From Candidatus Eiseniibacteriota bacterium (GTDB lineage Bacteria; Eisenbacteria; RBG-16-71-46; CAIMUX01; VGJL01): a stretch of DNA of 64,000 bases. The position numbers were made by a program, and so were the translations under genes. Where the stretch lies: NCBI GenBank assembly GCA_041946735.1, contig JBHGAY010000004.1, positions 64,001 through 128,000 of the forward strand, given 5' to 3'. Positions 41,674 to 59,405 of this stretch are shown piece by piece. Under the pieces are notes generated by a model. That model was not told the origin of the DNA. It saw nothing but the letters and a program-made list of their open reading frames with translations, and searched no databases. Position 1 is the first letter of the stretch, and each line of letters starts with the position of its first letter.

Positions 41674-44109
41674 CTACTCCTCGGCGTTCCTGCAGACGCG
41701 GAAGCCGACGATGTCGTCCCTCGAGTTCGGGAAATAGGGAGCGCGCGCAGCGGACCGGCAGTCGCGCGCGTAGTAGTACCAGCTGCCGCCCCGGATGACG
41801 CGCTGTGCGCCCATCTCGGGCCCGGCAGGATCCGCTTCGGTCTGCGAGGTGGGAACCGAATAGAAGTCCCAGCACCACTCCCAGACATTTCCATGCATGT
41901 CGTAGAGGCCGCCCGGGTTCGGCGCCTTCCCCTTGACTTCGTGGGTTGTGCCGCCCGCGTTGCCGCAGTACCAGCCGAGCGGATCGAGCGTCGCATCGAT
42001 TCCGCATGTCTGGCTGTTCGCCGCCAGCTCCCCGGTGGGGAATGCTCCTGACGTCCCGGCGCGCGCGGCGATCTCCCATTCCGCCTCGGTCGGCAGGCGC
42101 CAGCCCTCCGCGTCGCGGTTCCACGTCACCTGGTCGCCGAGGATCGTGTACGCCGGCTCCAGGCCATCGCGCGCGGAAATCGCGTTGCAGTAGGCGACCG
42201 CGTCGAACCAGCTCACCCGCTCGACCGGGCGCTGGTCCGAGCCGACGAAACGAGACGGGTTCGTTCCCATCACCGCCTGGTACTCGGCCTGCGTGACCTC
42301 GTGGTCGGCCATGAGAACGGCCCGGCGCGTCAGAACCACCTTGTGGAGCGTCTCGTCCGTGTCGCGTCCCACCTCTCCCGGAGGGCTTCCGACCGTGTAG
42401 ACGTCGCCGATGAACGGTCCCGGGAACGGTCCGAGCTCGACGCGGTTCTGGTGTCCATCCTCGAAGACGAAGAGGTGCTCGTAGCGGCCCTTCGGGAAGG
42501 TGGACTCGTAGCGGTAGACCGCGCCGTCGCGAGGATTGCCGCTCTCGAGTTCCATCGGGAAGGCGTTCCCCCCGATCTGCACGTCGTGGACGGCCGGAGC
42601 CTCTCCCTCTCCATCCTCGTAGGTCACGCGGAACACGATCGCCTCGCTTTCGCTCGCCGCCTCGGGCGCGACCGAGTTGCCGAGGAGTGTCGGCGGGACG
42701 TTGCCGCTCGGCGTCGTGCTGGTGGCAACACGCGAGAGCTTCGAGGCGTTGCCGGCATCGTCGATCGCGCGAAGAGCGAAGGCGTAGGTCGTCCCCGGTT
42801 GCAGACCGGTGACGCGGAAGCTCTCGGCCGATCGGCTCACGGCCGGCGACGGCTCCCCTTCGCACTCGATCGCCGCGTCCCAGCTGGAGTCGTCGATCGT
42901 GCCGGTCGAGTACCGGATATCGTAGGCGCTCGCCGTCCCCAGGTATTCGTCGTCGCCCGGCGCGTTCCACGTCAGGCGAACGCTCGAGGAGTCGGTCGCC
43001 ACCGCGGCGAGGTCCTCGACGATTCCCGGAGCGGTGCGGTCCTGAAACGCTCCGCCGCCACCGAGGATTACGAGGCCCTCGGTCCTGTCGGAAACGACGA
43101 CAGCCCCGGAGGCGCAGCAGGCGACACCCGTCGCATACGTCGTCACGACGGTGCCGGCGAGAACCGGATTTGTCGGGTCGCTGATGTCGACCATGTGGAC
43201 GCCGCCGTCCTGAGCGGCGAGGAACGCCGTCTCGTCGCGGATCGTGATCGAGCGCGCAAAGCCGCCAAGCGCGAGGTGCGCCACCTCGATCGGCTTGTCT
43301 CCTTCATGGATCCGCATCACGACGAGACCGTTCGGTCCATCCGCGACGAACGCGTAGTCCCCCATCAGGTCTACGGCGCGCGCGAACCCGGGAGTGTCGG
43401 TGTTCCCCGTCACGACGACGGAGTTGAGGTCGGGGACTCGAGCATCGATGACCGTGAGGCCCATCTCGTCATCCGCCACGTACAGCCATCCATCTCGCGG
43501 CATGCTGTCTCTCGCGTACCCGGGCGTGTCGCAGAACGCGGTGCTCTGCGCGATGCGTCCCGGAATCGATGGGTCCGCGAAGAAGATGCGGACTCCATGC
43601 CAGCTCTCGGCTTGATAGAGCGTGTACATTCCCCCCGAAACGCGGGGCGGTTCGATGGAGACCCCCATGGCGTCGACCGCCGCGCCTCCGCCCGATTCGA
43701 ACCGGACCAGACTGTCGGGCTTCGTGACGTCGAAGCTCAGGAGCCCTTCCGTCCCGTCGATCGTGTAGGCGATGTCGTAGATCCCCAAGACCGTCGGGAT
43801 GCTCGCGACCACGAGCGACTCGACGAACTTCTGAGTACCGATGCCCATCAGGTATCGCGGGTTGGCCGGATCGGAGATGTCGACCGAATGAAGCCCCGAC
43901 TGCCCGGCGACGACGAAGGCGGTGTTGCCGAGCACGGCAACGTCCTCCGCTCCGCTTGGGAGCGGTACGCGGGCGATCACCTCGTAGACGGACTTGGGCG
44001 GCTTGTAGAGGTCCTGCTCGCCGCATCCACCTAGGAGCACGGCGCAGGCCAGGATCCACGCCGCGATCCAGAGTTGCCGACCACTTCTCGACGTCCGCAT
44101 CCGCGCCAT
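41674..44109 (-). CDS. Lipoprotein with LVIVD repeats, FN3 domain and C-terminal SUMF1/FGE-sulfatase (CLec) domain
   Basis: Lipobox LLGGC, LVIVD-like 'GLHSVDISDPANP' and 'YAFVADG..GL', FN3 'VRLTWNAPGDD', RLPTEAEWE, LYDMHGNVWEW, RVIRGGSW, GFRVCR. Confidence 0.85.
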   Translation of the reverse strand: MARMRTSRSGRQLWIAAWILACAVLLGGCGEQDLYKPPKSVYEVIARVPLPSGAEDVAVLGNTAFVVAGQSGLHSVDISDPANPRYLMGIGTQKFVESLVVASIPTVLGIYDIAYTIDGTEGLLSFDVTKPDSLVRFESGGGAAVDAMGVSIEPPRVSGGMYTLYQAESWHGVRIFFADPSIPGRIAQSTAFCDTPGYARDSMPRDGWLYVADDEMGLTVIDARVPDLNSVVVTGNTDTPGFARAVDLMGDYAFVADGPNGLVVMRIHEGDKPIEVAHLALGGFARSITIRDETAFLAAQDGGVHMVDISDPTNPVLAGTVVTTYATGVACCASGAVVVSDRTEGLVILGGGGAFQDRTAPGIVEDLAAVATDSSSVRLTWNAPGDDEYLGTASAYDIRYSTGTIDDSSWDAAIECEGEPSPAVSRSAESFRVTGLQPGTTYAFALRAIDDAGNASKLSRVATSTTPSGNVPPTLLGNSVAPEAASESEAIVFRVTYEDGEGEAPAVHDVQIGGNAFPMELESGNPRDGAVYRYESTFPKGRYEHLFVFEDGHQNRVELGPFPGPFIGDVYTVGSPPGEVGRDTDETLHKVVLTRRAVLMADHEVTQAEYQAVMGTNPSRFVGSDQRPVERVSWFDAVAYCNAISARDGLEPAYTILGDQVTWNRDAEGWRLPTEAEWEIAARAGTSGAFPTGELAANSQTCGIDATLDPLGWYCGNAGGTTHEVKGKAPNPGGLYDMHGNVWEWCWDFYSVPTSQTEADPAGPEMGAQRVIRGGSWYYYARDCRSAARAPYFPNSRDDIVGFRVCRNAEE

Positions 44110-44183
44110 CGTCGTCTCCCCTTCCTCTTCCTCTCCTCGTGCCGTTCGCCGCCTGTCCCGCTGCCCCCTGCGCCGGTGGCCCT

Positions 44184-45404
44184 CTAGAAGGTGTACGTCG
44201 CCCCGAGCCACGTCCGGTTGTCCTTGTAGTCCTTCTCCTCGTCCTCGATGCTCGGGTCGAGGTGCCCGGGGAGCGTGCTCACCCGCTGCGAGTACCGGTA
44301 GCCGAGCTGCAGGGCGATGCTTCGATAGAGCGGCGAGGTGTCGACGGTCAGTTCGCCGACGTAGACCTCGTCCTTCCGTCCGACGTGCAGCGGATCGTCG
44401 AGGACGGACCGATTCGTCGTAAAGTAGTACGCTTGGTACTGGCCCATCAGGCCGACTCCGGAGACGAAAGCGAGCGCGCCGCGCGGGGAATAGTCGAGCG
44501 AGAGCTCGAACATGTCCCGTTTGTACGACGCGTCCCCATTGTCGGACGTCTCGCGCTTCTCTCCTACCGTGTCCGTCCCGCGCGCCTCGACATCGCTGTA
44601 CGTGTACTCTCCGGCGACGCGGAACGCCTTCGAAAGGCCGTACGACAGGGCCGCAGCCCCGTTCCATTCCCAGTTGTCGTCCTCGATGAAGGGCCGGTTG
44701 TAATAGCGGATCGTCCGGCCGACGTCGAAGCGCCCCAGGATCCCTTTCGGGAAGCGATGCCAGTAGGAGACGAGAAAGGCATTGCGAGTCGACTTGAAAG
44801 GAAGCCAGACGAGCGGGGTGCTCGAACGCGGCTGGAACGGCGGCCGATCGGACAGAGGCCGGATCAGCGAGGCCGGCGCGTACGAGTAGGACAGATCGAG
44901 GTTGTCACGCCCCCAGGTGGGCTGACGGAGCCGGAACGTCCACGACTCGTTGTTCTTCTCGCCGTTCTGGTAGTACTGCCACTTGGTGTAGCCGATCCGG
45001 AACTCCGTGTCGCGGCTCCCGATCCATCTATGGCCGATGGAGAGCTGGATGCGCGGGCTGACGATCAGATCGTCGTACGTCTCGTACGTGAACTTCAGGG
45101 GGTTCGTGTTGGCGCGGAATTCGTCGATGACGAAATCCGGCGAACGGAAGACGTTGTCGTCGTAGATCACCTGCAGGCCGAAGGAGCCGGAGATGCGGAT
45201 CGCGGGCTTCGCCTGCGCACGCTTCTTCGAAGGCGCCTTCTTCTTCGTGGTCGTGGTCGCGCCGAGCGCCTGCTCCAGCCTCTCCTGTGCCCGGGCGGAG
45301 CTGGCCTCCTGCCGCAACATCGAAGCCGCCGCCGCGGTCGCTGCGATGGACGACACCACGGAGGCGACGAGCCAGAGAAGGACCGGGACCGACAGCTTCC
45401 TCAA
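44184..45404 (-). CDS. Putative outer-membrane beta-barrel protein
   Basis: Signal peptide, alternating amphipathic Tyr-rich strands, 'YDDNVFRS' and a C-terminal beta-signal WLGATYTF. TTG start inferred. Confidence 0.75.
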   Translation of the reverse strand: MRKLSVPVLLWLVASVVSSIAATAAAASMLRQEASSARAQERLEQALGATTTTKKKAPSKKRAQAKPAIRISGSFGLQVIYDDNVFRSPDFVIDEFRANTNPLKFTYETYDDLIVSPRIQLSIGHRWIGSRDTEFRIGYTKWQYYQNGEKNNESWTFRLRQPTWGRDNLDLSYSYAPASLIRPLSDRPPFQPRSSTPLVWLPFKSTRNAFLVSYWHRFPKGILGRFDVGRTIRYYNRPFIEDDNWEWNGAAALSYGLSKAFRVAGEYTYSDVEARGTDTVGEKRETSDNGDASYKRDMFELSLDYSPRGALAFVSGVGLMGQYQAYYFTTNRSVLDDPLHVGRKDEVYVGELTVDTSPLYRSIALQLGYRYSQRVSTLPGHLDPSIEDEEKDYKDNRTWLGATYTF

Positions 45405-45639
45405 AGGTGAACCCCCTCGCACCTCACCCCGCCTGGGGAAAGACCAGCCTGTCGTGCTCGATTGCTCGAGAGACGATCGGAACGCCTCCCTCACCCCGTC
45501 CGGCTACCCGACCCCATGGGGAAGCGCCGGGGAAAGAATACTAGATCGCGGCGGTCCGGGAAAGGATTCGACTTCCACCGGTGGCCTTCTCGAAACCGTT
45601 CTTGCAGAACTCCGACGCCTCTGGCAAAATCTCCTCGCC

Positions 45640-46827: not shown

Positions 46828-46868
46828 CTCGCCCACCCCGCGCTCGGGCGGATCGCTGGAACCCGCGT

Positions 46869-46901
46869 CGAAGGTCGGCTCACGGAGCCGACCTTCGCTT
46901 T
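46869..46901 (+). terminator. Terminator hairpin
   Basis: Perfect 13-bp stem CGAAGGTCGGCTC-ACG-GAGCCGACCTTCG followed by CTTT. Confidence 0.65.
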
Positions 46902-47138
46902 CCCGTGGCCGCATCCCCCCCCCGCGACGATGCGACCCGCCAGGGAGGCTTCTGTCGCCTTGAAAACCGGACCTCGGCGGCGCACAATTGTCAGCGCTGG
47001 AAAGTGGGGCCACCGGCGAGAGCAAGCATGAGGCCGCTTCTCTCAGGCTCCGTACGGAGTTGATTCGGATGGGGCCGGTCCTTCTCAAGGAGGGCCGCCT
47101 GACTCTCGAAACGAATCCGGAAGGATTCGGGAGGAATC

Positions 47139-48272
47139 ATGCGACTTGCGATCCGCCTTTCCACCCTGGCGCTCTTCGTGCTCGCCTTTCCGGGAACGAG
47201 CCTGGCGGGAAAGAACGCGAACGGCGCCATGATCGTCCACACCAACGACGCCGTGAACTACACGGTCACCGGTGCGAACTTCTGCGAGGATTCGTACAAC
47301 CCCGTCGACTGTATTTCGGCCGTGACGCAGTCGAACAAGGGTCCAGACGACGAGGCGATGATCTGGTTCCTCGCGTCGTTCTACGAGGGAACGAACCCGG
47401 CCGTCGCAGGTGTCCAGTTCGGCGTTCGACACAATCTGCCGCCCGGGCAAGGCTACGTCCCGCATTGGCACCAGTGCCCGCCGGATGCTCTCGTGCTTCC
47501 GGATGAGGGATTCCCCGACGTACCGGGCGGTACGCTCATCGGTTTCCTGGCTCCCGTCTACGATCGGCTTCTCACGTTCGCGTGGTTCGGCGTCTACCAG
47601 GCCGGCCCGGGAAGCTTCTTCGGTTCGGGCGTGTACCCGGGTGACGGTCTTGCGAAGTTTGCCGACGACTCTGTCCCGCCGGTCGAGGACCTCTGTCACT
47701 CCTTCGGCGAGGTTCATTGGATGGAGCCGGGATCCAACGACTGCCCGGTCGTCGTTGAGGGCGCTTGCTGCTATCCGGACGGTTCCTGCGAGGTCCTCTT
47801 GGAGGAGCAGTGCACCGGGGTTTGGGTCGAAGGCGTCACCTGCGACCCGAATCCATGCGAGCAGCCGCAGGCGTGCTGCTTCGTGGACGGCTCCTGCCAG
47901 GAACTGCTGCAGGCCGATTGCGACGCGCAGGGCGGCGTTCCGATGGGTCAGGGCACCAATTGCGATCCGAGTCCCTGCGGCCCGCCGTATCGCGCCTGCT
48001 GCCTGCCCAACGGGCAATGCGAGGTGGTGACGGTCGCCGAGTGCGAGGCGGCCGGCGGCGTCTTCGTCTGGGACGCCTTCGGATGCGAGCCGTTCCCTTG
48101 CTCGGAGGCGTGCTGCTTCTCGGACGGCTCCTGTCTGATGCTGATGCAGGAAGAATGCGCGGCCGAGGGAGGCCAGGCGATGGGTGATGGAACGGTGTGC
48201 GACGACGTCGAGTGCATTCCGGTCGCCACCGAGCCGACGACCTGGGGGAAGATCAAGGCGCGCTACCGCTGA
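47139..48272 (+). CDS. Secreted Cys-rich protein with four 'ACC..DG.C' repeats and C-terminal TWG motif
   Basis: SD GGGAGG and a signal peptide. Repeats GACCYPDGSC, QACCFVDGSC, RACCLPNGQC, EACCFSDGSC. Ends PVATEPTTWGKIKARYR. Confidence 0.85.
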   Translation: MRLAIRLSTLALFVLAFPGTSLAGKNANGAMIVHTNDAVNYTVTGANFCEDSYNPVDCISAVTQSNKGPDDEAMIWFLASFYEGTNPAVAGVQFGVRHNLPPGQGYVPHWHQCPPDALVLPDEGFPDVPGGTLIGFLAPVYDRLLTFAWFGVYQAGPGSFFGSGVYPGDGLAKFADDSVPPVEDLCHSFGEVHWMEPGSNDCPVVVEGACCYPDGSCEVLLEEQCTGVWVEGVTCDPNPCEQPQACCFVDGSCQELLQADCDAQGGVPMGQGTNCDPSPCGPPYRACCLPNGQCEVVTVAECEAAGGVFVWDAFGCEPFPCSEACCFSDGSCLMLMQEECAAEGGQAMGDGTVCDDVECIPVATEPTTWGKIKARYR

Positions 48273-48318
48273 GTCCGGAACCGAGGTCGAAGTCGAAGCG
48301 CCGGGGGGCGCGAGGGGA

Positions 48319-48879
48319 TCACATCTCCCCGCCGTCCCCCTTCTTCTCCATCTGGATCGCCTCGCCGCGGAGCTCGAACTGCTTCTCGGCGATCAGCTCC
48401 CGGAAAAGATAGACGCGGAAGGTGTAGAAGCCGGGCTGCCGCTTGCCGGGCGTCGCGGTGAAGGTGCTCATCAAGGATGTCACCGAGTCGCTCGGCATGT
48501 AGCGGATCGTCTTCTTGAAGGCGGTCTCGTCGTCGGGATCGAGCCAGACCATGTGGAAGATCAGCTCCCGATCCTTCCCCCGCGCGAACTGGTCTTGAAG
48601 CTCCGCGAACGCGTAGACCTTCGCGCCTTCCTCGATGTCGAAGGCGGTCCGGGCGCCGAGATGTTTGCCGGTGCGCTTGCTCGTCTTGTTCCGGTCCGAA
48701 AAGACGATGCTGGCAGAGACGTCGCCGGCCTGCTTGCCGGCATAGACGAAGGTGGAGTCGGGACCGAGCGCCGGATTCGACTCGCGCGTCGAGCAGCCGG
48801 AAAGAAGCCCCAGGAGCGACGCCGCCCCCGCCACCGTCACCAGACCGCACAGAGTGAGGATCGCCTTCGACCGCATCAC
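48319..48879 (-). CDS. Hypothetical lipoprotein, likely co-transcribed with the CapA gene
   Basis: Lipobox LLSGC and a beta-rich body. Starts 20 bp after the CapA stop, with SD-like GGAGGG. Confidence 0.7.
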   Translation of the reverse strand: MMRSKAILTLCGLVTVAGAASLLGLLSGCSTRESNPALGPDSTFVYAGKQAGDVSASIVFSDRNKTSKRTGKHLGARTAFDIEEGAKVYAFAELQDQFARGKDRELIFHMVWLDPDDETAFKKTIRYMPSDSVTSLMSTFTATPGKRQPGFYTFRVYLFRELIAEKQFELRGEAIQMEKKGDGGEM

Positions 48880-48898
48880 ACCAGCCCTCCGCCGCCCC

Positions 48899-51800
48899 CT
48901 ACCTCAGGAGCAAGACCTTCTCGACCCGCACCTCGCTGCCCGCCTCGACCCTGCAGAAGTAGAGCCCCGAGGCGAGACGGTCCGCAATGAAGTCGCTCCG
49001 ATGGCGTCCCGCCGCTTGCGCACCGTCGAACAGCACCGCCACTCTGCGTCCGCCCAGATCGAACATCTCGATCCGCACGTGAGCAGCACGCGGCAGATGA
49101 TACTCGATCGCGACGCGATCGGCGAACGGATTCGGCCGCGGAGGCGCCATCCAGAGCGACCGACCCGCGTCCGCCCCGGATCGATCGTCGCCGGCGGCTG
49201 CCGTGCTGGAGATCGAGCGCTCCTCCCACTCGACGCGTATCGAGTCGGTCACGCTCGACGAGCGCGCCTGCACGAATCGATAGTTGTTCGGATGTTCGAT
49301 CTGCCCAGCGTCCGCCGCCGGCCGCCACGGCTCCCACTCGATCAGCCGGACCTCGTCGAACCATGAATAGCCATCGCCGGAGAGCGGGCGGTCGGTCACG
49401 CAGCGCGGCATGAAGAAGACCCCCTCCTCCGGGACCGCCCCGCTCCCTTCGATCGGCGTCCAGCCCTGCGTCCCCGCAGGGACGGGTCCGGCCACGATCG
49501 TCGCGACCGCCTGCCCGCCTCGCCCCGCGCAAAAGCGCGCTTCGATGCGCGCCTCGCCGGCATTCTCCGTCCGCACTTTGCCGAGGACCGTGTACTCGCG
49601 CCCGCCCAGGCAAGCGGGATAGCCCTCGAAGTCCGTCGTGACCGGGCCGACGTTTTGCGGTGTTCGATGCTGGCGCAGCGAGCGCAGCCCCGCGCTCACG
49701 ACCGTCTCGTCGTAGCGCTCATCGCCGCTGTTCAGGTTCCAGAGCGTCGCGCCTTCGTCCTCGAAGTCGCCGTGCCACAGGATCTCGCGACCCACCCGGA
49801 CTTCGGCGTCCCCGGGCGCCGCGACGTCCACGACCGCCGAGATCGTCCCGGCGCCGCGATGCTCGATCGGCTCGGAGACCCACCATCCTCCTTCGGATTC
49901 TTTGGCCGGGACGGTGCGCGCCACGCCGGTCACCTGCCAGGCGAGCCCGCCCGGGTCGAGATGGATCGTTGCGAGCAGGCGGGCGGGGTCGACGGTGACG
50001 GTCGTCGCCAGCTCGCGCGAGTAGTCGGCCATCCGGTCGAGGATCTCGCGCCCGAGCCGGCCTGTCGCGATCCGCGGGATCGTGTCGTCGATGAAGACGG
50101 GACGGAACGTGAAGGCCTGGAACGCGTCCTTCGTGCACTCGGCATAGAGGATCACCGAGGGGAACGTCTCGGCGAAGCTCTGATCGAACGCGAAGTTGCC
50201 GAGGCTGTGCGCGATGAGGACTCCCTGGTACACCTCGAAGCCTTGAAGGACATGAGGATGGTGGGCGATGACCAGGTCGGCCCCCTCCTCGATCGCGCGC
50301 CAGCGTAGCTGGCGGTCGATCTCGTGGGGGCGCGTCGGGAATCGGAAGCGCGAGACGTTCTCGTCCTCGTCCTCGTTTTCGCCCGCGGCCGCGCCTTCGG
50401 CGCCGGCGCCTCGCACACTTTGGTCGTCCTGAACGCCCTCGCCGCCGTCGTCGATCGCGGGCAGAGGGCCTACCGCATCGAGCGGCGGCTCGGCCGGCCA
50501 GCCGCCCGCCCCTGCCCCAGCGCCGGCGCCCGGACCGCTCTCCTTCGGGAAGGTCACGTACTCGTGCCCGGCGTGCATCTGGATCACGAGCTGATCGACG
50601 AGGGGGCGCAGGCCGGCGATCGCATCGCCCAGGTTCGGCTCGCGCAGGTAAGCGAACCCCGCCTTGTCGTAGGCGGCGTCGAGAAACGGCTGCTGGTTGT
50701 ACTCCCGCCCGGTGCGGTTGCACTGCGAGAGGAATCCGAACGAGACGCCGCGCTCGGTCCGGATGGTCGGTTGAAGCGCGGCGTACTCATCGTCTCCCGC
50801 TCCGGACCACTGGATTCCCGCCGTATCGAGCACGCGGATCGTCTCGTCGAGGCCGGGCTGGCCATAGTCGACGATGTGGTTGTTGCCGAGCCCGACGACG
50901 TCGATCCCCGCATAGAGGAGCCCTGCGACGTTCTCCGGTTTACCGCGGAAGACGTACGGCTTCGTCGGGTGCGGCTCTCCCTCGTCCGTCAACGGACATT
51001 CGAGGTTACAGATCGCCATCTCCGCCTCGTCGCCATAGAACGGTCGGGTCGGGACGAAGATCGCCTCGGGCCCGCGGTCGTGGATGACGCCGCCCGGAGC
51101 CTCGTAGCGACGCGCCAGCATGACGTCGCCGACGAATGCGAGGGTGACCGGCGCTTCCTCGCCGCCCGGCTCCACGGTGACCTGCGCGCTGTCGCGCCCC
51201 CAGAGTCCCGTTTCGTCCTGCACGCCGAGCGTGACCGCGTAGGTGTGATCGGAGGCGACCACGAACTCGTGAAACGGATCGGGGATCGCGCTCGTCCCGC
51301 CGTCGCCGAAGTCCCACGCGTAGGAGAGGCTGTCCGGGTCGCTGTCGGGGTCCTCGACCTGGGCATGGAACTGCACGCCCACGCGGTACAGCCCGCGGTC
51401 GAGCGGCACGACGCGCTGCAGCCCGCGAACGATCTCCGCCTCCGGCGCGATCGGGAGATCGGCCGTGACGTCCCGCACGTCGTCGAAGACCGTGATCCCG
51501 TCGGTCGCGTCGTCCCGGTCGTTGACGTAGACCAGCGCCGTCAGCGCCGGCTCGTAGCCGTAGCGGCTGACGAAGTCGCGGCCGACAGGAAGGTAGTAGA
51601 CGTTCCAGACTCCGGTGGGGAACGCCCCCTGGTAGGCGACCTCCCACTCCGGGTCGGCCGGCAGCTGCGAGCCGGCGAACGTGTAGAGGAGCGCGTTCGT
51701 CCCGTCGGTCACGCCGAAGGCCTGCATCTCGCCGATCTCCTCGACGAAGACCGCGACGGTGAGAACCGTGCCCGCGTCGATCGCGTAGGGGACGATCGGC

Positions 51801-52084
51801 TGGGCTTTCCAGCAGTTGCCGTAGAGGCGGAGCGCGTAGGAGCTGCCGTCGTGGGTGTTGTCCGGCTCGATCTCCCAGCGATCCGGCTCCAGGTCCTGCC
51901 CGGAACCGTAGGAGACGAGGTCGGCCTCGCCCGACTCGAAATCGGCGAGCACCTCCGCCCGCGCCGATGCGCCTACCGTGCCGCTGGCTACGCCGAACGA
52001 GGCGAGCGTGAATGCCAGGGCGAAGACGAGCGCTCCGCCGGCGTCGAGTCGGCGGATGCAGGCGGCGCGAGCGATACGTCTCAT
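48899..52084 (-). CDS. capA: CapA/PgsA-family metallophosphoesterase fused to PKD, carbohydrate-binding-like domains and FlgD-Ig CTD
   Basis: FVGDVM, CNLECPL, GNNHIVDYG, HAGHEY, HHPHVLQG, HSLGNFAF. PKD motif YAWDFGDG. C-terminal PNPF...FDLGGR...LASGLYFCR. Confidence 0.85.
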   Translation of the reverse strand: MRRIARAACIRRLDAGGALVFALAFTLASFGVASGTVGASARAEVLADFESGEADLVSYGSGQDLEPDRWEIEPDNTHDGSSYALRLYGNCWKAQPIVPYAIDAGTVLTVAVFVEEIGEMQAFGVTDGTNALLYTFAGSQLPADPEWEVAYQGAFPTGVWNVYYLPVGRDFVSRYGYEPALTALVYVNDRDDATDGITVFDDVRDVTADLPIAPEAEIVRGLQRVVPLDRGLYRVGVQFHAQVEDPDSDPDSLSYAWDFGDGGTSAIPDPFHEFVVASDHTYAVTLGVQDETGLWGRDSAQVTVEPGGEEAPVTLAFVGDVMLARRYEAPGGVIHDRGPEAIFVPTRPFYGDEAEMAICNLECPLTDEGEPHPTKPYVFRGKPENVAGLLYAGIDVVGLGNNHIVDYGQPGLDETIRVLDTAGIQWSGAGDDEYAALQPTIRTERGVSFGFLSQCNRTGREYNQQPFLDAAYDKAGFAYLREPNLGDAIAGLRPLVDQLVIQMHAGHEYVTFPKESGPGAGAGAGAGGWPAEPPLDAVGPLPAIDDGGEGVQDDQSVRGAGAEGAAAGENEDEDENVSRFRFPTRPHEIDRQLRWRAIEEGADLVIAHHPHVLQGFEVYQGVLIAHSLGNFAFDQSFAETFPSVILYAECTKDAFQAFTFRPVFIDDTIPRIATGRLGREILDRMADYSRELATTVTVDPARLLATIHLDPGGLAWQVTGVARTVPAKESEGGWWVSEPIEHRGAGTISAVVDVAAPGDAEVRVGREILWHGDFEDEGATLWNLNSGDERYDETVVSAGLRSLRQHRTPQNVGPVTTDFEGYPACLGGREYTVLGKVRTENAGEARIEARFCAGRGGQAVATIVAGPVPAGTQGWTPIEGSGAVPEEGVFFMPRCVTDRPLSGDGYSWFDEVRLIEWEPWRPAADAGQIEHPNNYRFVQARSSSVTDSIRVEWEERSISSTAAAGDDRSGADAGRSLWMAPPRPNPFADRVAIEYHLPRAAHVRIEMFDLGGRRVAVLFDGAQAAGRHRSDFIADRLASGLYFCRVEAGSEVRVEKVLLLR

Positions 52085-52197
52085 CGATCCTCCGTGGTCA
52101 AGGCGAGGTGTGGAAACAGCGCCAATCAAGGATATCATGATCGCGGCTCCCTTCGACAGGGGGACCGTGCGAGGCGCAGAGCAGGAGGAGCGAGAGA

Positions 52198-52902: not shown

Positions 52903-52917
52903 GGAGGATCGAAGACC

Positions 52918-53442
52918 ATGCGAAGACCGCCCGAGATCCACGTGGCTCCGACGACAGCCGCCGACCTCCCGGATCTGATGGCCCTTTGGAACGACGGTCG
53001 TGTGATGCGATGGGTCGGCTTCCCTGATGGGCTCGGCTACGACGAGGCCAGGATTGCGCGCTGGTTCGCCGGAATCTCCGCGAAGCCCGACCGGCGCCAC
53101 TGGACCGTGCGCTCGCCGGACGTCGGGTTCTGTGGGGAGCTGTACGCCGAGATCGATCGCGTCCACCGCCGGGCCGGGCTCGACATCAAGTTTCGCCCGG
53201 ATGCGCAGGGTTGCGGCCGCTCGGCGGCCGCCATGCTTTCCCTCATCGACGGGATCTTCGAGACGGAGCCCGAGGTCCACGCGGTCTGGACCGAGCCTTG
53301 GGAGGAGAACCTGGCCGCTCGCACTCTCTACTACCGTTGCGGGCTTCGACCCGCCGAGCGGCCGGCGGATCTGGAGCCGTTTCCGTCCTATTGGGAGCTG
53401 AGACGCGAGCGCTGGGAGGCCGCGCGCGCCGGCCGAGGTTGA
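52918..53442 (+). CDS. GNAT family N-acetyltransferase (RimJ/RimL-like)
   Basis: DLMALWND..VMRWVG, AQGCGRS acetyl-CoA motif, ENLAARTLYYRCG. SD GAGGAGG. Confidence 0.8.
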   Translation: MRRPPEIHVAPTTAADLPDLMALWNDGRVMRWVGFPDGLGYDEARIARWFAGISAKPDRRHWTVRSPDVGFCGELYAEIDRVHRRAGLDIKFRPDAQGCGRSAAAMLSLIDGIFETEPEVHAVWTEPWEENLAARTLYYRCGLRPAERPADLEPFPSYWELRRERWEAARAGRG

Positions 53443-53495
53443 TCGCGCCTCCGCTTGTCCGCTTCGACCCCAGCCGCCTAGAATGGTTGGGCGCG

Positions 53496-55169
53496 ATGAA
53501 AGGCTGCATCTTCGTCACTCGCGGGCGCGCCGTCCTGGGGCTCGTCCGCCCGCTCCCGCCGATCCCGGCGCTTGCGACGCTCGGCGCGCTCGGCGCTTTG
53601 CTCCTGCTCGCTCTGGGACTTCTCTCCGTCCCTGCGCGCGCCGGATCGCCCCCCGCGGCGCGGGTCTCTCTCCTTCCCTTCTCCGAGGAAGGTGAAGAGT
53701 GCACGATTGCGGTGGCGTCCGGGCTGGCGACTGCGGACGGCCGCCCCATCCTGTGGAAGAATCGCGATACCGGCTACCAGGACAACGAAGCGGTCTACTT
53801 CGATGACGGTCTCTATCGCTACGTGACGCTCGTCAACGCCGGGCAGACGGACGAGGCATGGATCGGGGTCAACGAGCGGGGATTCGCGATCGCGAACGCG
53901 CTCTCTCACAATCTCCCGGACAGCCTCTACATTGGGATCACGAACGGCGAGCTGATGAAGCGGGCGCTGCAGATCTGCGGGACGGTCGAGGATTTCGAGG
54001 GGTATCTCAAGACGACGAACAAGCTCGGCCGCCAGAACCCCGCGAATTTCGCAGTCCTCGATGCCGCGGGCGGCGCCGCGATGTTCGAAGCCGGCAACCG
54101 CCACTACCTTCGCTACGATGCCGCGGTCGCGCCACGCGGTGTTCTCGTCCGCACGAACTTCTCCTTCTGGGCAGACACGACCGGCTACGAGACGTGGAGA
54201 TTCCGTCGGTGCTCGCAGCTCGTCGGGCAGGCCATTCAGATGCACCGCCTGATGGTCCGGACGTTTCTGCAGGAGATCGCGCGCGACATCCGGCCCGCCG
54301 ATCTCGATCCCTACCCGCTACCGTTCGAGGGAACGCCTCCCGAGGATCCGAAGGCGCATGGGTACGTTTGCACCGCGAACACGATCAATCGGCGCAACAC
54401 GGTGGCCGGGGGCGCCGTGCTGGGGGTGCGCGCCGGAGAAGACCCCATGCTCAGCGCGTTCTTCGCGGCGCTCGGCCAGCCGGTCTCCACCATCCCGCTC
54501 CCGGTGTGGGTCGCCGCCGGCGCGACGCCGCCGGAGATGGACGGAGCGCTGACGTCGCCGGTCTGCGACGAGGCGAAGGAGCGGATGGAGCGGATCTACG
54601 ACTATCTCCCGAACTTCACGCTGCTGAACACCTACGAGCTCCGATCCCCTTCGCGTGGCTGCTACCTGGCGCAGGCCGAAAGGGTCGAGCGCTGGATCTT
54701 CGATCAGGCCGATCTCGAGCTGAATCGCTGGCGGCGCGAGGGGGCGACTCCGGAGGAGATGCGCCAGGCGGAGCAATGGATCGCGCAGCGGGCTTTCCGC
54801 GCATGGCAGAAGGGAGAGCCTCTTCCGGGGGAGGTTCGTCTCGATCTCTACGCGTATGCCTCCCCGAATCCTTCGCGCGGTGCGACGATCCTCCGGATCG
54901 AATCCGAGCGCGCGCTGCCGGCGGGGCTCGCGCTCGAGCTGTTGGACGTCCAGGGACGGCGGGTCGTCCGCCTGCCGGCCGGACCCGAGACGGCGGACCA
55001 TTCGCCGGGCGGGCAGGCTTGGCCCGCGAACGCGCGCAGCGTCCTTTGGGATGGCCGGGATGCCAGCGGGCGGAGGGTCTCGGCCGGCATCTACTTCTAC
55101 CGCCCCGTGCTCGCGAACGGGGAGGCCTCCGCCAGCGCTCCCGCCGGTTCCGTCGTGCTCGTTCCCTGA
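53496..55169 (+). CDS. Secreted Cys-nucleophile Ntn hydrolase (C45/C69-like) with FlgD-Ig CTD
   Basis: Hydrophobic leader, EE-CT.AVASG.ATADGRPILWKNRD, GVNERGFAIAN, VRTNFS. C-terminal SPNPS...DVQGRRV...WDGRDASG..VSAGIYF. Start uncertain. Confidence 0.8.
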   Translation: MKGCIFVTRGRAVLGLVRPLPPIPALATLGALGALLLLALGLLSVPARAGSPPAARVSLLPFSEEGEECTIAVASGLATADGRPILWKNRDTGYQDNEAVYFDDGLYRYVTLVNAGQTDEAWIGVNERGFAIANALSHNLPDSLYIGITNGELMKRALQICGTVEDFEGYLKTTNKLGRQNPANFAVLDAAGGAAMFEAGNRHYLRYDAAVAPRGVLVRTNFSFWADTTGYETWRFRRCSQLVGQAIQMHRLMVRTFLQEIARDIRPADLDPYPLPFEGTPPEDPKAHGYVCTANTINRRNTVAGGAVLGVRAGEDPMLSAFFAALGQPVSTIPLPVWVAAGATPPEMDGALTSPVCDEAKERMERIYDYLPNFTLLNTYELRSPSRGCYLAQAERVERWIFDQADLELNRWRREGATPEEMRQAEQWIAQRAFRAWQKGEPLPGEVRLDLYAYASPNPSRGATILRIESERALPAGLALELLDVQGRRVVRLPAGPETADHSPGGQAWPANARSVLWDGRDASGRRVSAGIYFYRPVLANGEASASAPAGSVVLVP

Positions 55170-55354
55170 CGGCTCTGCTGCCGGGCCGGAAACGTGGAGC
55201 CGCGGACGAGGCCGGCCGGCGGCGTCGTCCCGGACTCCTCGGGCCCGGAACAGGGGCGCCGCGGAGCGCGGGCACCGCGGGGGCGGGGGCGCTGCGGGGG
55301 GCGGCGCGGCGATCTTCCTGCCCGGTCATTCTTTGCACCGGGGGGCGCGGGCGC

Positions 55355-55360
55355 TATGAT
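55355..55360 (+). promoter_or_regulatory. Putative -10 (TATGAT) for pgsBCW
   Basis: Near-consensus hexamer in an AT-richer patch about 190 bp upstream of pgsB. Confidence 0.35.
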
Positions 55361-55552
55361 TAGAAGGGTTTCTTTCGACCGCCCGGGGGCTGGGGATCGG
55401 CTGGAGCGACGGGATCCGGACGGGCCGTGGTCCCATGCGCGCGATTCCCCGGCTCCTCGAGGTCAGAACCGCTTGGAGTCTGGCCAGCCGGGCCGGCGCG
55501 GGGTCCGCGTCGCCGGAAGACGCCACAAGGTCCGTCGGAAGGTAGGTCAAGC

Positions 55553-56722
55553 TTGGCAGTCCTGCTGCTGATGCTCGCTCTCGTGCTCGTTCTGTGGGGG
55601 CACGAGGCGATCCGGCATCGCCGCGCCCTGCGGGCGCTGGAGATCCGGATCCACGTCAACGGGACTCGGGGGAAGTCCTCCGTTACCCGTCTGCTCGCCG
55701 GCGCGCTTCGCGAGGCGAACATCCCGACCTTCGCCAAGACGACCGGCTCCACGGCGCGACTGATCTTCCCGGACGGTCACGAGGAGCCGATCGTGCGCGT
55801 GGGCAGCCCGAACATCTGCGAGCAGATCGGCGTGCTCGACCAGGCGCGACGCTCCGGGGCGCGGGCGATCGTCATGGAGTGCATGGCGGTTCGTCCCGAC
55901 CTGCAGAAGGTCTGCGAGCATTCGATCATGAAGTCCTCGATCGGCGTCTGCACCAACGTGCGGCCCGACCACCTCGACGTCATGGGGCCGACGGTCGACG
56001 ACGTCGCCGTGGCGCTTTCCTCGACGGTGCCGAAGAGAGCCACCGCCGTCCTGGGCGACGCCCGCTTCCGCTCCGTCTACCGGAAAGTGGCGGCGGCGCG
56101 CCGCTCGGAGCTGATCGTCAGCGGTCCGTCCGACCTTCCGCCTGGGGCGATGGACGGCTTCCGCTACGTCGAGCACGAGGAGAACGTCGCCACGGCGCTC
56201 GCCGTCACACGGAGGCTTCACATTCCGGACGAGACGGCGCTGCGCGGCATGTACCGCGCCACCCCGGACGTCGGAGCGTGCACGCGCTGGACGCTCGAGC
56301 GTTCGGGCCGGCCGATCGAGTTCGTGAACATTTTCGCCGCGAACGATCTCGAATCGACGATCCAGATCTGGCGGATGCTGGGGCTGCAGAGCCTGCCGGA
56401 GGAGACGACCTTCGCGTTGATCAATCTTCGCGGCGATCGCGTCGATCGCTCGCTGCAGTACGCGGCCGCGGTCGAAGGCGGGCTGCGGGCCGACTTCTAC
56501 GTCTTGGTCGGCGACTTCCCGGATACCGTGCTGCAGCAGTTCCGCCGGCAGGTGCCGGAAGAGCGGCTGGTGCCGATTGGGCGAGAGGTGCCGCAAGCGA
56601 TCTTCGACCGGATCGCGTCTCTGAGCGACCGGCGCGCGCGCGTCGGAGGGGTGGGGAACATCGGCGGGTTGGGTCACGAGATCCTGCGGTACGTGGCCCA
56701 GGAAGGAGGACCGACGTGCTGA
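55553..56722 (+). CDS. pgsB: Poly-gamma-glutamate synthase (Mur-ligase family)
   Basis: N-terminal TM, RIHVNGTRGKSSVTRL, AKTTG, NICEQ, ECMAVRP, TNVRPDHLDVMGPT, EHEENVA, FAAND, R.DRVDRS, GVGNIGG. Start TTG 55553 or ATG 55571. Confidence 0.95.
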   Translation: MAVLLLMLALVLVLWGHEAIRHRRALRALEIRIHVNGTRGKSSVTRLLAGALREANIPTFAKTTGSTARLIFPDGHEEPIVRVGSPNICEQIGVLDQARRSGARAIVMECMAVRPDLQKVCEHSIMKSSIGVCTNVRPDHLDVMGPTVDDVAVALSSTVPKRATAVLGDARFRSVYRKVAAARRSELIVSGPSDLPPGAMDGFRYVEHEENVATALAVTRRLHIPDETALRGMYRATPDVGACTRWTLERSGRPIEFVNIFAANDLESTIQIWRMLGLQSLPEETTFALINLRGDRVDRSLQYAAAVEGGLRADFYVLVGDFPDTVLQQFRRQVPEERLVPIGREVPQAIFDRIASLSDRRARVGGVGNIGGLGHEILRYVAQEGGPTC

Positions 56723-57180
56723 TCGCGGAAGCGATCGGTATTGGGATCGTCGCCAGTCTGCTCTTCACCGAGGCGATCGGATTCGCGGCGGGCGGATTCG
56801 TCGTCCCCGGCTACATCGCTCTCTACCTCGACCGTCCCATGCAGGTCATCGGGACGGTCCTGGCCGCGCTCGTGACCTACGGGTGCCTGAAGCTGACCGG
56901 ACGATTCCTGCTGATCTACGGGCGGAGGAACCTCGTTCTCGCCGTCCTGCTCGGCTTCGTCTTCGGCGCGCTGACCGCCCAGATCCCGACCGAGCCGCTC
57001 GGCTCGCTCGAGGGTGGCCTGGCGGCGATCGGCTTCATCATCCCGGGCCTGCTCGCCTATTGGATGACGCGGCAAGGGATCGTGCGAACGCTCGCCGCGA
57101 TGGCGGTCGCCGCCGTGCTCGTGCGGCTGGCCCTCATCGTCCTTCATGGAGGTGCGCTCCTTGAGACGGCTACTCTCTAG
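56716..57180 (+). CDS. pgsC: Poly-gamma-glutamate biosynthesis membrane protein
   Basis: AGGFVVPGYIAL, LLIYGRR, IGFIIPGLLAYWM.RQG. GTG start overlaps the pgsB end, SD GGAGG. Confidence 0.93.
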   Translation: MLIAEAIGIGIVASLLFTEAIGFAAGGFVVPGYIALYLDRPMQVIGTVLAALVTYGCLKLTGRFLLIYGRRNLVLAVLLGFVFGALTAQIPTEPLGSLEGGLAAIGFIIPGLLAYWMTRQGIVRTLAAMAVAAVLVRLALIVLHGGALLETATL

Positions 57181-58342
57181 CGCTCGCGGCGCCTCCTGGA
57201 CGCGAAGGGCGGATCTGTTTCTCGTCGCTCTCGCTGTGCTCGGCCTCGGGATCCATACGCTGACCGAGTCGACCCGACGGATGAATCCGAGACCCTACCT
57301 CGCGGAGAAGATGGGGGCGGCCACGCGCGCGATCCGTTGTTTCGAGGCGATCCGCGAGGCGCGGCTCGGCACACCGTCCTCCCAGGATACGGAGAACGAC
57401 CCGGAGGGCAGCGGGCTGATCGGGCAGGAGTTCACGCTGACGACGACGGACCGTGGAGTGCTGGAGGCGAAGCTCACCTCGGTCAATCCGAACTTCGCCG
57501 CGGTCTTCGTCGAGTACTTCAAGGACATGGGACTCGAGAGGGGCGACGCGGTCGCGATCGCGCTGACCGGCTCCTTCCCTGCCTTGAACGTCACCGTGCT
57601 CGCGGCGGCCGAGGAGTTGGGGCTGCGCGCTCTGCCGATCACCTCCGTGGGAGCGTCGATGTGGGGCGCCAACGATCCCTCCTTCACCTGGCTCGACATG
57701 GAAACGCTCCTGAACAGGCAGGGGCTGCTTGCGACGCGTTCGATCGGGGCGTCGATCGGGGGAAGCAACGACCGCGGGAGGGGCTTGAGCCCGCGCGGGC
57801 GCGCCTTGCTGCGCGAGGCGATCGAGCGCAACGGTGTCGCGCTGATCCGCGAGCCGACGCTCGACGAGTCGGTGAAGAAGAGGCTCGAGATGTACCGCGA
57901 GGCGGCGGGACCGGCCGGCGTCAGGGCGTTCGTGAACGTCGGAGGCGGCGCGGCGGCCACCGGCACCCAGCAGAACTCGGACCTGATCCCGCCTGGGGTG
58001 AACCGGTCGCTGAAGCCCTACAACTGGACTCAGAGAGGCGTGATCCACTACTTCGGCCGCGAGCGCATTCCGTTCGTGCATGTCCTGAACATCGAATCGA
58101 TCGCGCAGGCGAATGGCCTTCCGACCGTCCCGGAGCGGGTGCCGCCGGTCGGCGAGGGAGAGGTCTTCTACCGCGAGATGTACGATCTGCGGATCGCCGG
58201 GCCGGCCCTGGCGGTCTATCTCGTGCTCTGCTTCGGAGTCCTGCGCGCGCGGCATCGCGCGGCCCAGGCGGCGCGGGTCGTGGAGGTGCCGGCGGCGATC
58301 ACGGCCATCGGCGCCGAGCCGGTCTCTCAAAGTCGCGGATGA
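57161..58342 (+). CDS. pgsW: Poly-gamma-glutamate system protein
   Basis: GLIGQEFT..TTDRG.LEAKLTSVNPNFAA, TGSFPALN, SVGASMWGANDP.FTWLDME, FVNVGGG. N- and C-terminal TM segments. Start TTG 57161 (SD GGAGG) or ATG 57146. Confidence 0.85.
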   Translation: MRRLLSSARGASWTRRADLFLVALAVLGLGIHTLTESTRRMNPRPYLAEKMGAATRAIRCFEAIREARLGTPSSQDTENDPEGSGLIGQEFTLTTTDRGVLEAKLTSVNPNFAAVFVEYFKDMGLERGDAVAIALTGSFPALNVTVLAAAEELGLRALPITSVGASMWGANDPSFTWLDMETLLNRQGLLATRSIGASIGGSNDRGRGLSPRGRALLREAIERNGVALIREPTLDESVKKRLEMYREAAGPAGVRAFVNVGGGAAATGTQQNSDLIPPGVNRSLKPYNWTQRGVIHYFGRERIPFVHVLNIESIAQANGLPTVPERVPPVGEGEVFYREMYDLRIAGPALAVYLVLCFGVLRARHRAAQAARVVEVPAAITAIGAEPVSQSRG

Positions 58343-58379
58343 CGGCGACAGAGACCGGAGGGAACGTGGAGGGAAAGGA

Positions 58380-59363
58380 ATGATTCCGATGCGTAGCGGC
58401 GGTTCGAGCGATCCGAGCGATTCGAGGTCCCGGTGGCGGCGGGACTGCCAGGGCTTGCGTCTCGCCGCGATCCTCGCCGTCCTCTGCCTTGCCGCGACGC
58501 CGCTGCTGTCCGATGCCGCCGCGGGGAACCGGATCCAGCCGCTTCGCGACGCGGGCGTCGCCAAGATCAAGGTCGGGCGGAAGACGTCCACCTACCACCG
58601 GGCGACGGCGGCGGAGCCGATCGAGTTTCGCGTGACCGGCCCGACACCGGTTCGAATCCTGAGCCGTTACCTGTACGCGAAGGGACAGGCTTCCGCGCCG
58701 GTCTCCTACAGGCTGGAGGTTTCGATCGATGGCGTGGCCCTTCCTTCCCCTCCCGAAAGGGCGAAGCCGAGCAAGAGCACCTGGAAGGGCAGGCCGGTCG
58801 GTACGCTCGAGCGGGAGATCGTCCGGATTCCCGCCGGCAGCCATCGGGTCCTCGTACGACCGGTGAATCCGAAGGCGACCGTCGCGGTCCGGATCTTCCT
58901 CGGAGGCGGAGAGCGGGCGAGAGTCAACTGGATCGACTTCGCCCCCGAGACCTATCCAAAATCCCTCCGCTTGCATCGGAGCGATCAGGAGATCGCGTGC
59001 TACCGCCTGGAGCCCGGCAGTCCCGTGGAGATGCCGCCGATCCATGGTCCGCTGCGCCTGCGCATCGAGAGTCGGATCGATTTCGGCTTCGCGAACGGCT
59101 ACACGCAAAGCTACATCGTCAAGACCCTGCTCGATGGCAAGCCATGGCACAGCTTCGCGCTCAAGTCCCGGGCGAGCCACACCACGAGCTACCCGGATCT
59201 GCCCGAGGTGACGCCTGGCCTGCTGCGTCAGTTCGAGGTCGAGGTGCCGCCTGGAACGCACGTCGTCACCTTCGAGCTCGACGGGACGACGGCAGGCGGC
59301 GCGACGCTTCGGATCCGCGCGCCGCAGAGCGAGATCAACGAAGGGATCAGGCGGGCCGGATAG
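58380..59363 (+). CDS. Hypothetical secreted basic protein with two tandem beta-sandwich-like repeats; last gene of the pgs operon
   Basis: Signal-like segment. Duplicated 'GP..RI.SR...Y.....DG...P.G.H.V' pattern. Lys/Arg rich. Confidence 0.75.
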   Translation: MIPMRSGGSSDPSDSRSRWRRDCQGLRLAAILAVLCLAATPLLSDAAAGNRIQPLRDAGVAKIKVGRKTSTYHRATAAEPIEFRVTGPTPVRILSRYLYAKGQASAPVSYRLEVSIDGVALPSPPERAKPSKSTWKGRPVGTLEREIVRIPAGSHRVLVRPVNPKATVAVRIFLGGGERARVNWIDFAPETYPKSLRLHRSDQEIACYRLEPGSPVEMPPIHGPLRLRIESRIDFGFANGYTQSYIVKTLLDGKPWHSFALKSRASHTTSYPDLPEVTPGLLRQFEVEVPPGTHVVTFELDGTTAGGATLRIRAPQSEINEGIRRAG

Positions 59364-59371
59364 GCGATCTC

Positions 59372-59405
59372 CCCGCATCTTCCTCGCCTGTGCGGGCTTT
59401 TATTT
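59372..59405 (+). terminator. Putative terminator of the pgs operon
   Basis: CCCGCA...TGCGGG stem followed by CTTTTATTT. Confidence 0.55.

Follow-up and report, generated by a model that had tools for sequence, protein, structure and literature searches.

The stretch of DNA analysed here, referred to below as the window, comprises 64,000 nucleotides (positions 64,001 to 128,000 of contig JBHGAY010000004.1, assembly GCA_041946735.1) from a Candidatus Eiseniibacteriota bacterium with a genome of 4.9 Mb and 68% GC. It carries the genes pgsB, pgsC and pgsW, a gene that we call X and a gene for a 14-stranded outer-membrane β-barrel, which together form a real and conserved module that is apparently undescribed in print within the literature searched. 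Because X, the barrel and several secreted enzymes encoded nearby come and go with the pgs genes in several phyla, we regard them as the best candidates for the export and processing of poly-γ-glutamate (PGA) in two-membrane cells. In our view, the most consistent interpretation, which we hold to be probable but by no means secure, is that the module is a synthase-dependent PGA secretion system of two-membrane bacteria of the Fibrobacterota–Chlorobiota–Bacteroidota (FCB) group. This interpretation draws on gene content, linkage, co-loss, gene fusions and predicted folds, from which we infer export, the identity of the polymer and its anchoring.

The synthase genes overlap pairwise on the forward strand. 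The pgsB (capB) gene, which encodes a Mur-ligase-type poly-γ-glutamate synthase, is placed at 55553..56722 (+) by a probable TTG start at 55553 within an open reading frame (ORF) of 55427-56722; it overlaps pgsC (capC; 56716..57180, +), which encodes a membrane subunit and itself overlaps pgsW (57146..58342, +). All three pass curated cut-offs, with 374.6 bits versus 222.7 for PgsB (TIGR04012), 119.8 versus 96.45 for PgsC (TIGR04011, together with PF14102 over its cut-off) and 309.9 versus 100 for PgsW (TIGR04332). Adjacent CapB/PgsB and CapC/PgsC genes are what the CapsuleFinder PGA model requires, according to the accessible part of PMC5542703, and the window has this pair with the TIGR04332 gene following pgsC. 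The closest labelled relatives of this PgsW are from Candidatus Eisenbacteria, with 62–66% identity, and the protein is probably the 'PgsF' of a recent Cloacimonadota preprint (10.1101/2025.11.11.687785). Hydropathy and the model of a PgsW–X fusion homologue from locus L045 [predicted local distance difference test (pLDDT) 92.1] indicate an inner-membrane-anchored α/β domain flanked by two long helices. The PgsW alignment has 20 columns without variation, with Gly, Asp, Asn and Trp frequent among them. No solved relative was found by sequence and no informative Pfam match, its Atlas neighbours are PgsW clusters only, and its fold gave one match at Z 7.6, from the two-part model in which X filled the match list. 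A σ70-like promoter match precedes pgsB (55332..55360, +; consensus match only), such sites numbering four in 19 kb versus 1.4 ± 1.0 in shuffles. A terminator-like hairpin after X (59383..59396, +) is likewise a consensus match only, the regional count of five not exceeding the 8.3 expected by chance.

X (58380..59363, +) lies downstream of pgsW and encodes a basic protein with a signal peptide and two tandem jelly-roll domains; the barrel gene (44184..45494, −; probable TTG start at 45404) is displaced by 10 kb from pgsB in this genome. The first-pass annotation of the window had placed these genes correctly, with 58380 described as hypothetical, and had set association with pgsBCW beforehand as the test of membership. 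For the barrel and X the association held strongly across phyla. Family profiles detected PgsB in 57, PgsC in 58, X in 56 and the barrel in 51 of 60 PgsW loci, which were found by scanning with the window PgsW, have flanks of up to 10 kb and are labelled Eisenbacteria, Krumholzibacteriota, Bacteroidales, Fibrobacteraceae, Cloacimonadota, Marinimicrobia, Ignavibacteria, Caldithrix and others. The set is biased to close relatives, L066 and L067 are one contig, five loci recur in the genome samples considered below, and the profiles were made from the same 60 loci, so that the tallies are descriptive and not an independent test. Of the nine loci without the barrel, four (L057, L066, L067 and L075) are cut by contig ends, while for two (L031 and L033) the barrel was found at another place in the same genome; at L058 the predicted barrel is of a different kind, and both X and the barrel are absent from L073 and L088. 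We note that a smaller, unrelated predicted barrel with no Pfam match occupies the slot beside pgsBCW-X at L058:11976-12830 and L159:11360-12208. The usual gene order is C25 (gingipain-fold) protein, pgsB, pgsC, pgsW, X, barrel, LVIVD lipoprotein, HGSNAT-like gene, small lipoprotein. The window has the same genes rearranged, with the barrel–lipoprotein pair inverted and unrelated genes inserted, and the split is common to its family-level relatives.

Three genome samples extend these counts. In the bacterium's own phylum (201 genomes, 65 with PgsW and 136 without), a barrel match (E ≤ 0.001) is present in 62 of the 65 PgsW-positive versus 21 of the 136 negative genomes; some of these 21 are paralogues, of which one subfamily lies in the glycosyltransferase operon described below; of nine loci examined, three adjoin cytochrome oxidase operons and others have unrelated neighbours. 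In Cloacimonadota (121 genomes, 113 with PgsW and eight without) the figures are 113/113 and 1/8, the sole exception being a 2.8 kb contig bearing X and the barrel, and the barrel and pgsW were seen by eye to lie on one contig within about 2.6 kb in 106 of the 113. In the order Bacteroidales (301 genomes, 21 with PgsW and 280 without) the barrel is found in 14/21 versus 1/280, the latter match being weak and partial, with seven candidates scored per genome. Four of the seven barrel-less Bacteroidales positives were opened: L159 has X and the alternative barrel, while L158, L161 and L162 have neither; in one further such genome pgsW is at a contig edge. A dedicated outer-membrane barrel is thus genetically tied to the synthase, although Fisher tests of co-occurrence overstate the association, since related genomes are not independent samples.

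In the window's order, PgsW status is available for 33 genomes, 27 positive and six negative (G201 and G202 were excluded). Strong barrel matches, the HGSNAT-like gene and the YRG-type C25 proteins described below are each present in 26 of the positives, the full-length LVIVD–SUMF1 lipoprotein in 25 (with one further partial), the CapA fusion in 23 and the Ntn hydrolase in 11, and all are absent from the negatives. The positive genome usually missing is G130, where a contig end truncates X. With positive controls, five of the six negatives were also checked for PgsB, X and the small lipoprotein, and all five lack them. The genomes G021 (97% complete) and G163 (95%) lack pgsB, pgsW, X, the barrel, YRG-C25, HGSNAT and the full-length lipoprotein, and their congeners G051, G099 and G129 possess all of these. 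The six negatives are one family, yet the existence of positive congeners for two of them suggests that the whole module was lost at least twice. A tblastn search of the window genome gave one copy each of pgsB, pgsC, pgsW and X, of the HGSNAT-like and small-lipoprotein genes, of the full-length CapA fusion and of the Ntn domain.

The module partners are also found joined in single chains. Natural PgsW–X, X–barrel and PgsW–X–barrel fusions were observed; PgsW–X fusions occur in six of the 60 loci, and among the 150 best barrel representatives, out of 1275 hits, 22 carry X-like domains and three have PgsW on the barrel chain. In most PgsW fusions the last PgsW helix is followed by a hydrophobic segment resembling a signal peptide, and these fusions are probably processed polyproteins, the parts of which are cut apart after export.

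X has no Pfam or NCBIfam family, its Atlas neighbours are unnamed and it shows no likeness to the small lipoprotein of the locus. In the L045 fusion model it forms two jelly-rolls resembling CBM35/36/51 and BcsB (Z 8–9.8), the BcsB match (Z 9.1) spanning both domains. Of 52 members of the family, 42 carry a net positive charge, and among 1280 ORFs of the genome the window X ranks at the 95th percentile by net charge; the secreted enzymes, in contrast, are acidic. X has invariant Arg and Tyr residues.

The barrel was predicted with high confidence (AlphaFold pLDDT 92.6). Its best structural matches are CymA [Z 24.7, root-mean-square deviation (r.m.s.d.) 3.3 over 285 aligned residues] and OmpG (Z 20.4), followed by FadL-like barrels (Z 16–17); the polymer exporters score lower (BcsC, 14.2; PelB, 13.7; PgaA entry 4y25, 13.2; AlgE, 11.9). 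It shares strand number and overall fold with the 14-stranded monomeric porins CymA and OmpG, but the identity is 8–10% and the conserved loops and gene context are different. It is not of the AlgE/BcsC/PgaA type, which would have 16–18 strands and detectable homology, and no sequence match was found among solved structures. Matches to PF10082 (BBP2/EpsL-type) are weak and limited to four of 46 barrels (best E 0.0035), and that to TIGR03014 (E 0.027) covers 21 residues. Most of the conserved residues are found in loops or at the ends of strands; predicted lumen positions, guessed from strand alternation and not from coordinates, are net positive in 36 of the 46. The window genome has one distant paralogue of the barrel, which precedes a propeller protein in a glycosyltransferase/Wzc-like operon, an arrangement that we count in favour of an export role. 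This operon (G000:C45:87943-103560, covering L171 and L172; also L173-L179) is conserved and consists of a GT28-like gene, the barrel, a PQQ-type propeller with a sorting domain, a small carboxypeptidase-regulatory-domain protein, a multi-domain GT4, an ABC transporter and a Wzc-like gene, as assigned by Pfam for L171, L172, L176 and L178 and by ORF-size layout for the five other loci; it is a candidate locus for the export of a polysaccharide along similar lines. Other relatives of the barrel occur without pgs genes directly 5′ of a di-haem cytochrome c and cytochrome c oxidase operon (L091:10224-16398, L092:5362-10566 and L095:4906-10661).

The C25 proteins form the most distinctive accessory family. 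A C25 gene is the first gene of the pgs operon in many relatives and is found in 23 of the 60 loci; in the window it lies at 32813..36679 (+). A second C25 gene (25715..30553, −) is divergently transcribed, has the same position in ten other loci (L036, L041, L044, L048, L050, L079, L131, L132, L135 and L142) and encodes a protein with three further close paralogues in other parts of the genome. Between the two is a gene for a β-helix protein (30840..32510, +; assigned by Pfam), which is found in six of the 60 loci and in the same position in relatives. All three proteins carry a C-terminal sorting domain. The C25 proteins resemble the gingipains and PorU in fold, propeptide, position of the catalytic Cys and sorting domain. 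In all 27 aligned pgs-linked cores, however, Y-R-G-(W/Y/E) replaces the Y-x-G/A-H-G of RgpB, Kgp and PorU, so that the catalytic His of these enzymes is found in none of the 27 and Trp, Tyr or Glu stands in its place; the catalytic Cys is kept in all. An Arg occupies the position of RgpB Thr209 in 27 of 27, the equivalent of RgpB Asp163 is lost, and a His is present throughout in the loop aligned to RgpB 282–288 (in one column in 23 proteins, two residues earlier in four). Thr209, Asp163, Trp284 and Met288 make up the S1 pocket of RgpB in the accessible text of PMC9559808 and PMC4357240; judged from the alignment, the acidic pocket has probably become basic, which would suit glutamate.

In the own-phylum sample YRG-C25 proteins (E < 1e-97) are present in 31 of 65 PgsW-positive genomes, eight of which supplied profile rows, versus none of 136 negatives, with a clear score gap to His-bearing C25 paralogues (the motif was checked in the window genome). 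In Bacteroidales, orthologues at a level of at least 58% are found in 14 of 21 positives (one being the query) versus none of 280 negatives, although these may be one clade. A pgs-linked C25 protein that has lost the His, kept the Cys and gained the pocket Arg, and that occurs only in PgsW genomes among the samples searched, is new here. Where present, the family is expanded to 4–9 paralogues per genome; it is absent from 34 of the 65 PgsW-positive own-phylum genomes, and the window genome, with 15 C25-like ORFs, also has His-bearing C25 proteins. Families f5 and f8 have no YRG-C25 and carry a BNR propeller with a sorting domain before pgsB, which, like the expansion into several paralogues, counts against a core role for C25.

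Several variants of this slot were noted. In large families of the class it is filled by a BNR/sortilin propeller with a sorting domain (L112:5223-7673, L113-L119, L129, L059 and L068), and a small, possibly haem-binding lipoprotein lies 3′ of the barrel in loci of this kind (L119:7484-8248). At G444:C45:19245-40541 (L155 and beyond) six YRG-type C25 genes stand in tandem directly 5′ of pgsB, with like arrays in G398, G560 and G628. The secreted partners in loci labelled Marinimicrobia, and in some others, have a C-terminal dockerin-like domain where a FlgD-type sorting domain would otherwise stand (L054:14115-17084, L069:4783-8331 and L059:5998-8205).

The mechanism that we favour would begin with PgsB and PgsC polymerizing glutamate with ATP at the inner membrane, as is established for homologues in the families to which they belong. 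PgsW, on its two membrane helices, may be the part of the synthase that faces the periplasm, a position occupied by CapA/CapE in Bacillus. The fold, charge and fusions of X suggest that it would bind the polyanion and guide the chain through the periplasm, in the way that BcsB guides cellulose, and the fold and linkage of the barrel suggest that it would be the exit pore in the outer membrane, joined in some lineages by the propeller lipoprotein, with the lipoproteins possibly acting as a scaffold, as the first-pass annotation proposed. In the weakest and most lineage-limited step, the YRG-C25 proteins, the CapA fusion and the Ntn hydrolase might be secreted separately by the SprA/PorV route and, with the HGSNAT-like acyltransferase, epimerize, trim, acylate or tether the chain, so serving as anchoring factors. 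A PGA-like matrix stained by 4′,6-diamidino-2-phenylindole (DAPI) around enriched Cloacimonadota is reported in the accessible text of 10.1101/2025.11.11.687785.

A number of points weigh against this secretion system. In the part of PMC5542703 available, capABC alone is reported to yield PGA in Escherichia coli. The closest folds to the barrel are uptake porins and not the 16–18-stranded polymer exporters; its lumen charge, at the guessed positions, is mildly positive (mean +3.2; +1 for the window barrel), and relatives exist without pgs genes, some beside cytochrome oxidase operons. The fold scores of X (Z 8–10) barely exceed the level expected for common sandwiches. The genomes compared are kin and not independent, and the barrel profile was itself made from pgs-linked barrels. 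The internal signal-peptide-like stretches mean that the fusions show co-expression or common function more than contact, and after the operon split in the window's family the barrel stays with the lipoprotein and not with pgsBCW-X. Lastly, pgsBCW occurs without X and the barrel in two-membrane genomes (L073, L088, L120, L158, L161 and L162, and the nearly closed G037), so that X and the barrel are one route and not the sole one. As a separate observation, a second type of pgsBCW locus with neither gene adjoins a DctM-like transporter (L158:7128-11932, which also has DUF6305; L161:9185-14116; L088:8278-13509).

A different purpose for the same parts, compatible with export through the barrel, is that PGA is attached covalently, as an anchor or as a modification of proteins. 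The His-less YRG-C25 proteins would then be glutamyl-specific transpeptidases joining PGA to surface sorting-domain proteins or lipid, and the HGSNAT-like protein would make the lipid or acyl end. PorU, of the same fold, joins cargo to anionic lipopolysaccharide (A-LPS). The retained Cys, the Arg, the lost Asp and the loop His, at positions lining the RgpB S1 pocket, fit this idea, as does the restriction of the family to PgsW genomes; there is also no CapD-like gene at the window locus, the genome's sole γ-glutamyltranspeptidase (PF01019) match being on another contig (C23). Yet with the catalytic His gone the proteins may be inactive binders, their multiplicity is closer to that of cargo than to that of one sortase, over half of the PgsW-positive own-phylum genomes do without them, often with a BNR propeller in the slot, and ordinary His-bearing C25 proteins are available in the same genome. 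We consider this anchoring role improbable. The broader proposition that there is a complete, undescribed pathway, in which PGA is exported through its own 14-stranded barrel and then tethered to surface proteins or lipid by a rewired gingipain-fold enzyme, its His lost or moved and its pocket basic to suit glutamate, has in our judgement an outside chance; if true, it would give PGA the role that A-LPS has for Bacteroidota type IX secretion system (T9SS) cargo.

The likeness of the barrel to the cyclodextrin uptake channel CymA raises the further alternative of salvage, with the barrel as an inward channel for γ-glutamyl oligomers that the secreted enzymes set free, X as a periplasmic binder and PGA leaving by another way. 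Hydrolase-type neighbours (M14 peptidase in 11 of the 60 loci, Ntn and CapA) and the occurrence of pgsBCW without the barrel would agree with it. However, uptake would help non-producers, and no strong barrel match was obtained in 280 PgsW-negative Bacteroidales with seven candidates scored in each; barrel-type loci have no conserved inner-membrane transporter, and the barrel is fused to the synthase partner PgsW. We therefore rate salvage as quite improbable. Another possibility is that PgsBCW adds short γ-glutamyl chains to an envelope acceptor and that X and the barrel handle the conjugate. The invariant PgsW columns have a ligand-site or active-site character, the conserved barrel residues cluster in loops, and the literature covered, as far as its accessible text goes, gave no chemically characterized product for any PgsW system; PgsB and PgsC nevertheless score over equivalog cut-offs and a PGA-like matrix is reported around Cloacimonadota, and such a short-chain product seems to us very doubtful. 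We give least credence to the idea that the barrel acts like Slam, as a translocon carrying the lipoprotein encoded downstream (or X) to the cell surface, where they would bind the polymer. The Slam barrel also has 14 strands, soluble N-terminal domains are present in many members of our family (with TPR-like repeats, seen by eye, in one representative, P0030) and the coupling of barrel and lipoprotein survives the operon split, but the barrel is present in 51 loci versus 21 for the LVIVD lipoprotein, most Cloacimonadota loci have no conserved lipoprotein after the barrel, and none of 46 barrel members matched the Slam models at E 0.05.

The remaining accessory genes are best described as lineage-limited, as is the C25 pair. 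The first-pass annotation had joined all parts into one dedicated machine, which overstates the case, given how rare the CapA fusion and the Ntn gene are among the 60 loci (tallies below). Its claim that the lipoproteins, C25 proteins, CapA fusion and Ntn hydrolase go with pgsBCW is borne out within lineages but not as a universal rule. Its descriptions of the individual proteins agree with Pfam, the lipoboxes and the 14-strand model. The LVIVD propeller–FN3–FGE/SUMF1 lipoprotein (41674..44109, −) is co-oriented with and downstream of the barrel gene; the LVIVD part is found in 21 and the SUMF1 part in ten of the 60 loci. The HGSNAT-like multi-pass membrane acyltransferase (PF07786; 45640..46827, +; start inferred) is present in 13 of the 60, so that of the genes previously regarded as unrelated interruptions this one is a conserved member, while several others are indeed insertions. 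The small lipoprotein (48319..48879, −), identified by its lipobox, belongs to no known family and begins 19 bases after the CapA stop. It is found in five of the 60 loci, had matches in five of five PgsW-positive genomes tested (two weak) versus none of five negatives, and follows the HGSNAT-like gene in six of seven barrel-bearing Bacteroidales loci, cut or rearranged loci being excluded.

The CapA fusion (48899..52138, −; 1079 amino acids) combines a CapA/PGA_cap metallophosphatase-fold domain, with its motifs kept, with PKD and Por_Secre_tail sorting domains. It is found in two of the 60 loci and is also near pgs genes in L046 and L163. A role for CapA in export, as the first-pass annotation had it, is overstated and uncertain; in the accessible text of PMC8179263 CapA is proposed to be an epimerase from its likeness to MslH. 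The fusion scores 57.6 against the MslH model, far below the cut-off of 700, and is a candidate epimerase or hydrolase. The C45-like Ntn hydrolase/acyltransferase (53496..55169, +) has a predicted N-terminal Cys nucleophile at the expected cleavage site and a sorting domain; it is C45/AAT-like but under both cut-offs (21.3 versus 23.2 bits, and 57.5 versus 85), and its C-terminal domain resembles many others in the genome. It is found in one of the 60 loci, and eight of the 11 genes in the order stand beside module genes; in L162 it directly precedes pgsB, with a γ-glutamyltranspeptidase gene on its other side. The CapA fusion and the Ntn protein may plausibly process the polymer, but both are optional. 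The rarer tallies in the 60 loci are completed by the BNR propeller (three).

The sorting-domain proteins of the locus have the features of T9SS-type cargo, namely a signal peptide and a sorting domain in a genome that encodes SprA and PorV-family proteins (SprA over its cut-off and eight PorV-family matches over theirs). Since 237 ORFs of the genome carry a FlgD/Por-type C-terminal sorting domain, such genes are expected in any 20 kb; membership was tested gene by gene, and the domain was rejected as evidence of membership by itself. With SprA and PorV present, the pgs barrel is unlikely to be the exporter of these proteins. The flippase gene (23985-25547), which had been proposed as a possible member, is not one: it is found in none of the 60 loci, adjoins the C25 gene in no more than two relatives, both at family level, and has no orthologue in five genomes of the order, three of them PgsW-positive. 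The gene for a Cys-rich protein at 47139, the gene at 52198, the GNAT gene at 52918, the alkA/ogt/DUF72/MFS group and the gene at 59823 were seen in no other locus tested and are treated as insertions. The AlkA/Ada, Ogt, DUF72 and MFS genes (36836-41584) lie between the C25 gene and the lipoprotein and are absent from related loci. The Cys-rich secreted protein at 47139-48272 has many paralogues and a TWGxIK-type terminal motif, which is terminal in 38 genome ORFs and is possibly a second sorting signal. The secreted protein at 59823-61745 has a FlgD-type domain, an N-terminal part without family and one close paralogue, on contig C11.

PGA synthesis has been worked out in one-membrane Bacillus. 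With the Bacillus PgsBCA(E)/CapBCADE systems the window shares PgsB and PgsC over cut-offs and, nearby, a CapA-family domain and an Ntn-fold enzyme. It differs in that PgsW is the third component, the CapA domain is part of a secreted sorting-domain fusion that is not universal and lies 3.4 kb upstream instead of directly after capC, and the Ntn enzyme is C45-like with a Cys and not of the CapD type; X and the outer-membrane barrel have no Bacillus counterpart. The cassette has the same three genes in the same order as the Cloacimonadota 'CapB, CapC, PgsF' operon, here extended by X and the barrel; that operon is given as three genes, and the words 'barrel' and 'gingipain' do not occur in the main text of the preprint as available (10.1101/2025.11.11.687785). 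With synthase-dependent exopolysaccharide secretion (BcsA–BcsB–BcsC, AlgK–AlgE, PgaA, PelB–PelC) the proposed system has in common an inner-membrane synthase, a jelly-roll guide, a dedicated barrel, a lipoprotein and modifying enzymes, but the polymer is of the polypeptide type, the barrel has 14 and not 16–18 strands and no sequence match, and there is usually no TPR scaffold. No outer-membrane step for PGA is named in the accessible parts of PMC3815933, PMC5542703 and PMC13721041, and our search, which covered literature other than subscription papers (among these a Fusobacterium PGA paper), found no description of a pgsBCW-X-barrel module or of an outer-membrane PGA exporter.

The module offers two concrete proteins, X and the barrel, for the outer-membrane step of PGA. 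Almost all Cloacimonadota, a group of importance in anaerobic digesters, carry it, and the secretion of PGA by Gram-negative production hosts could be improved with it. In the His-less C25 subfamily, the rewiring of a protease fold for a polymer pathway can be put to the test.

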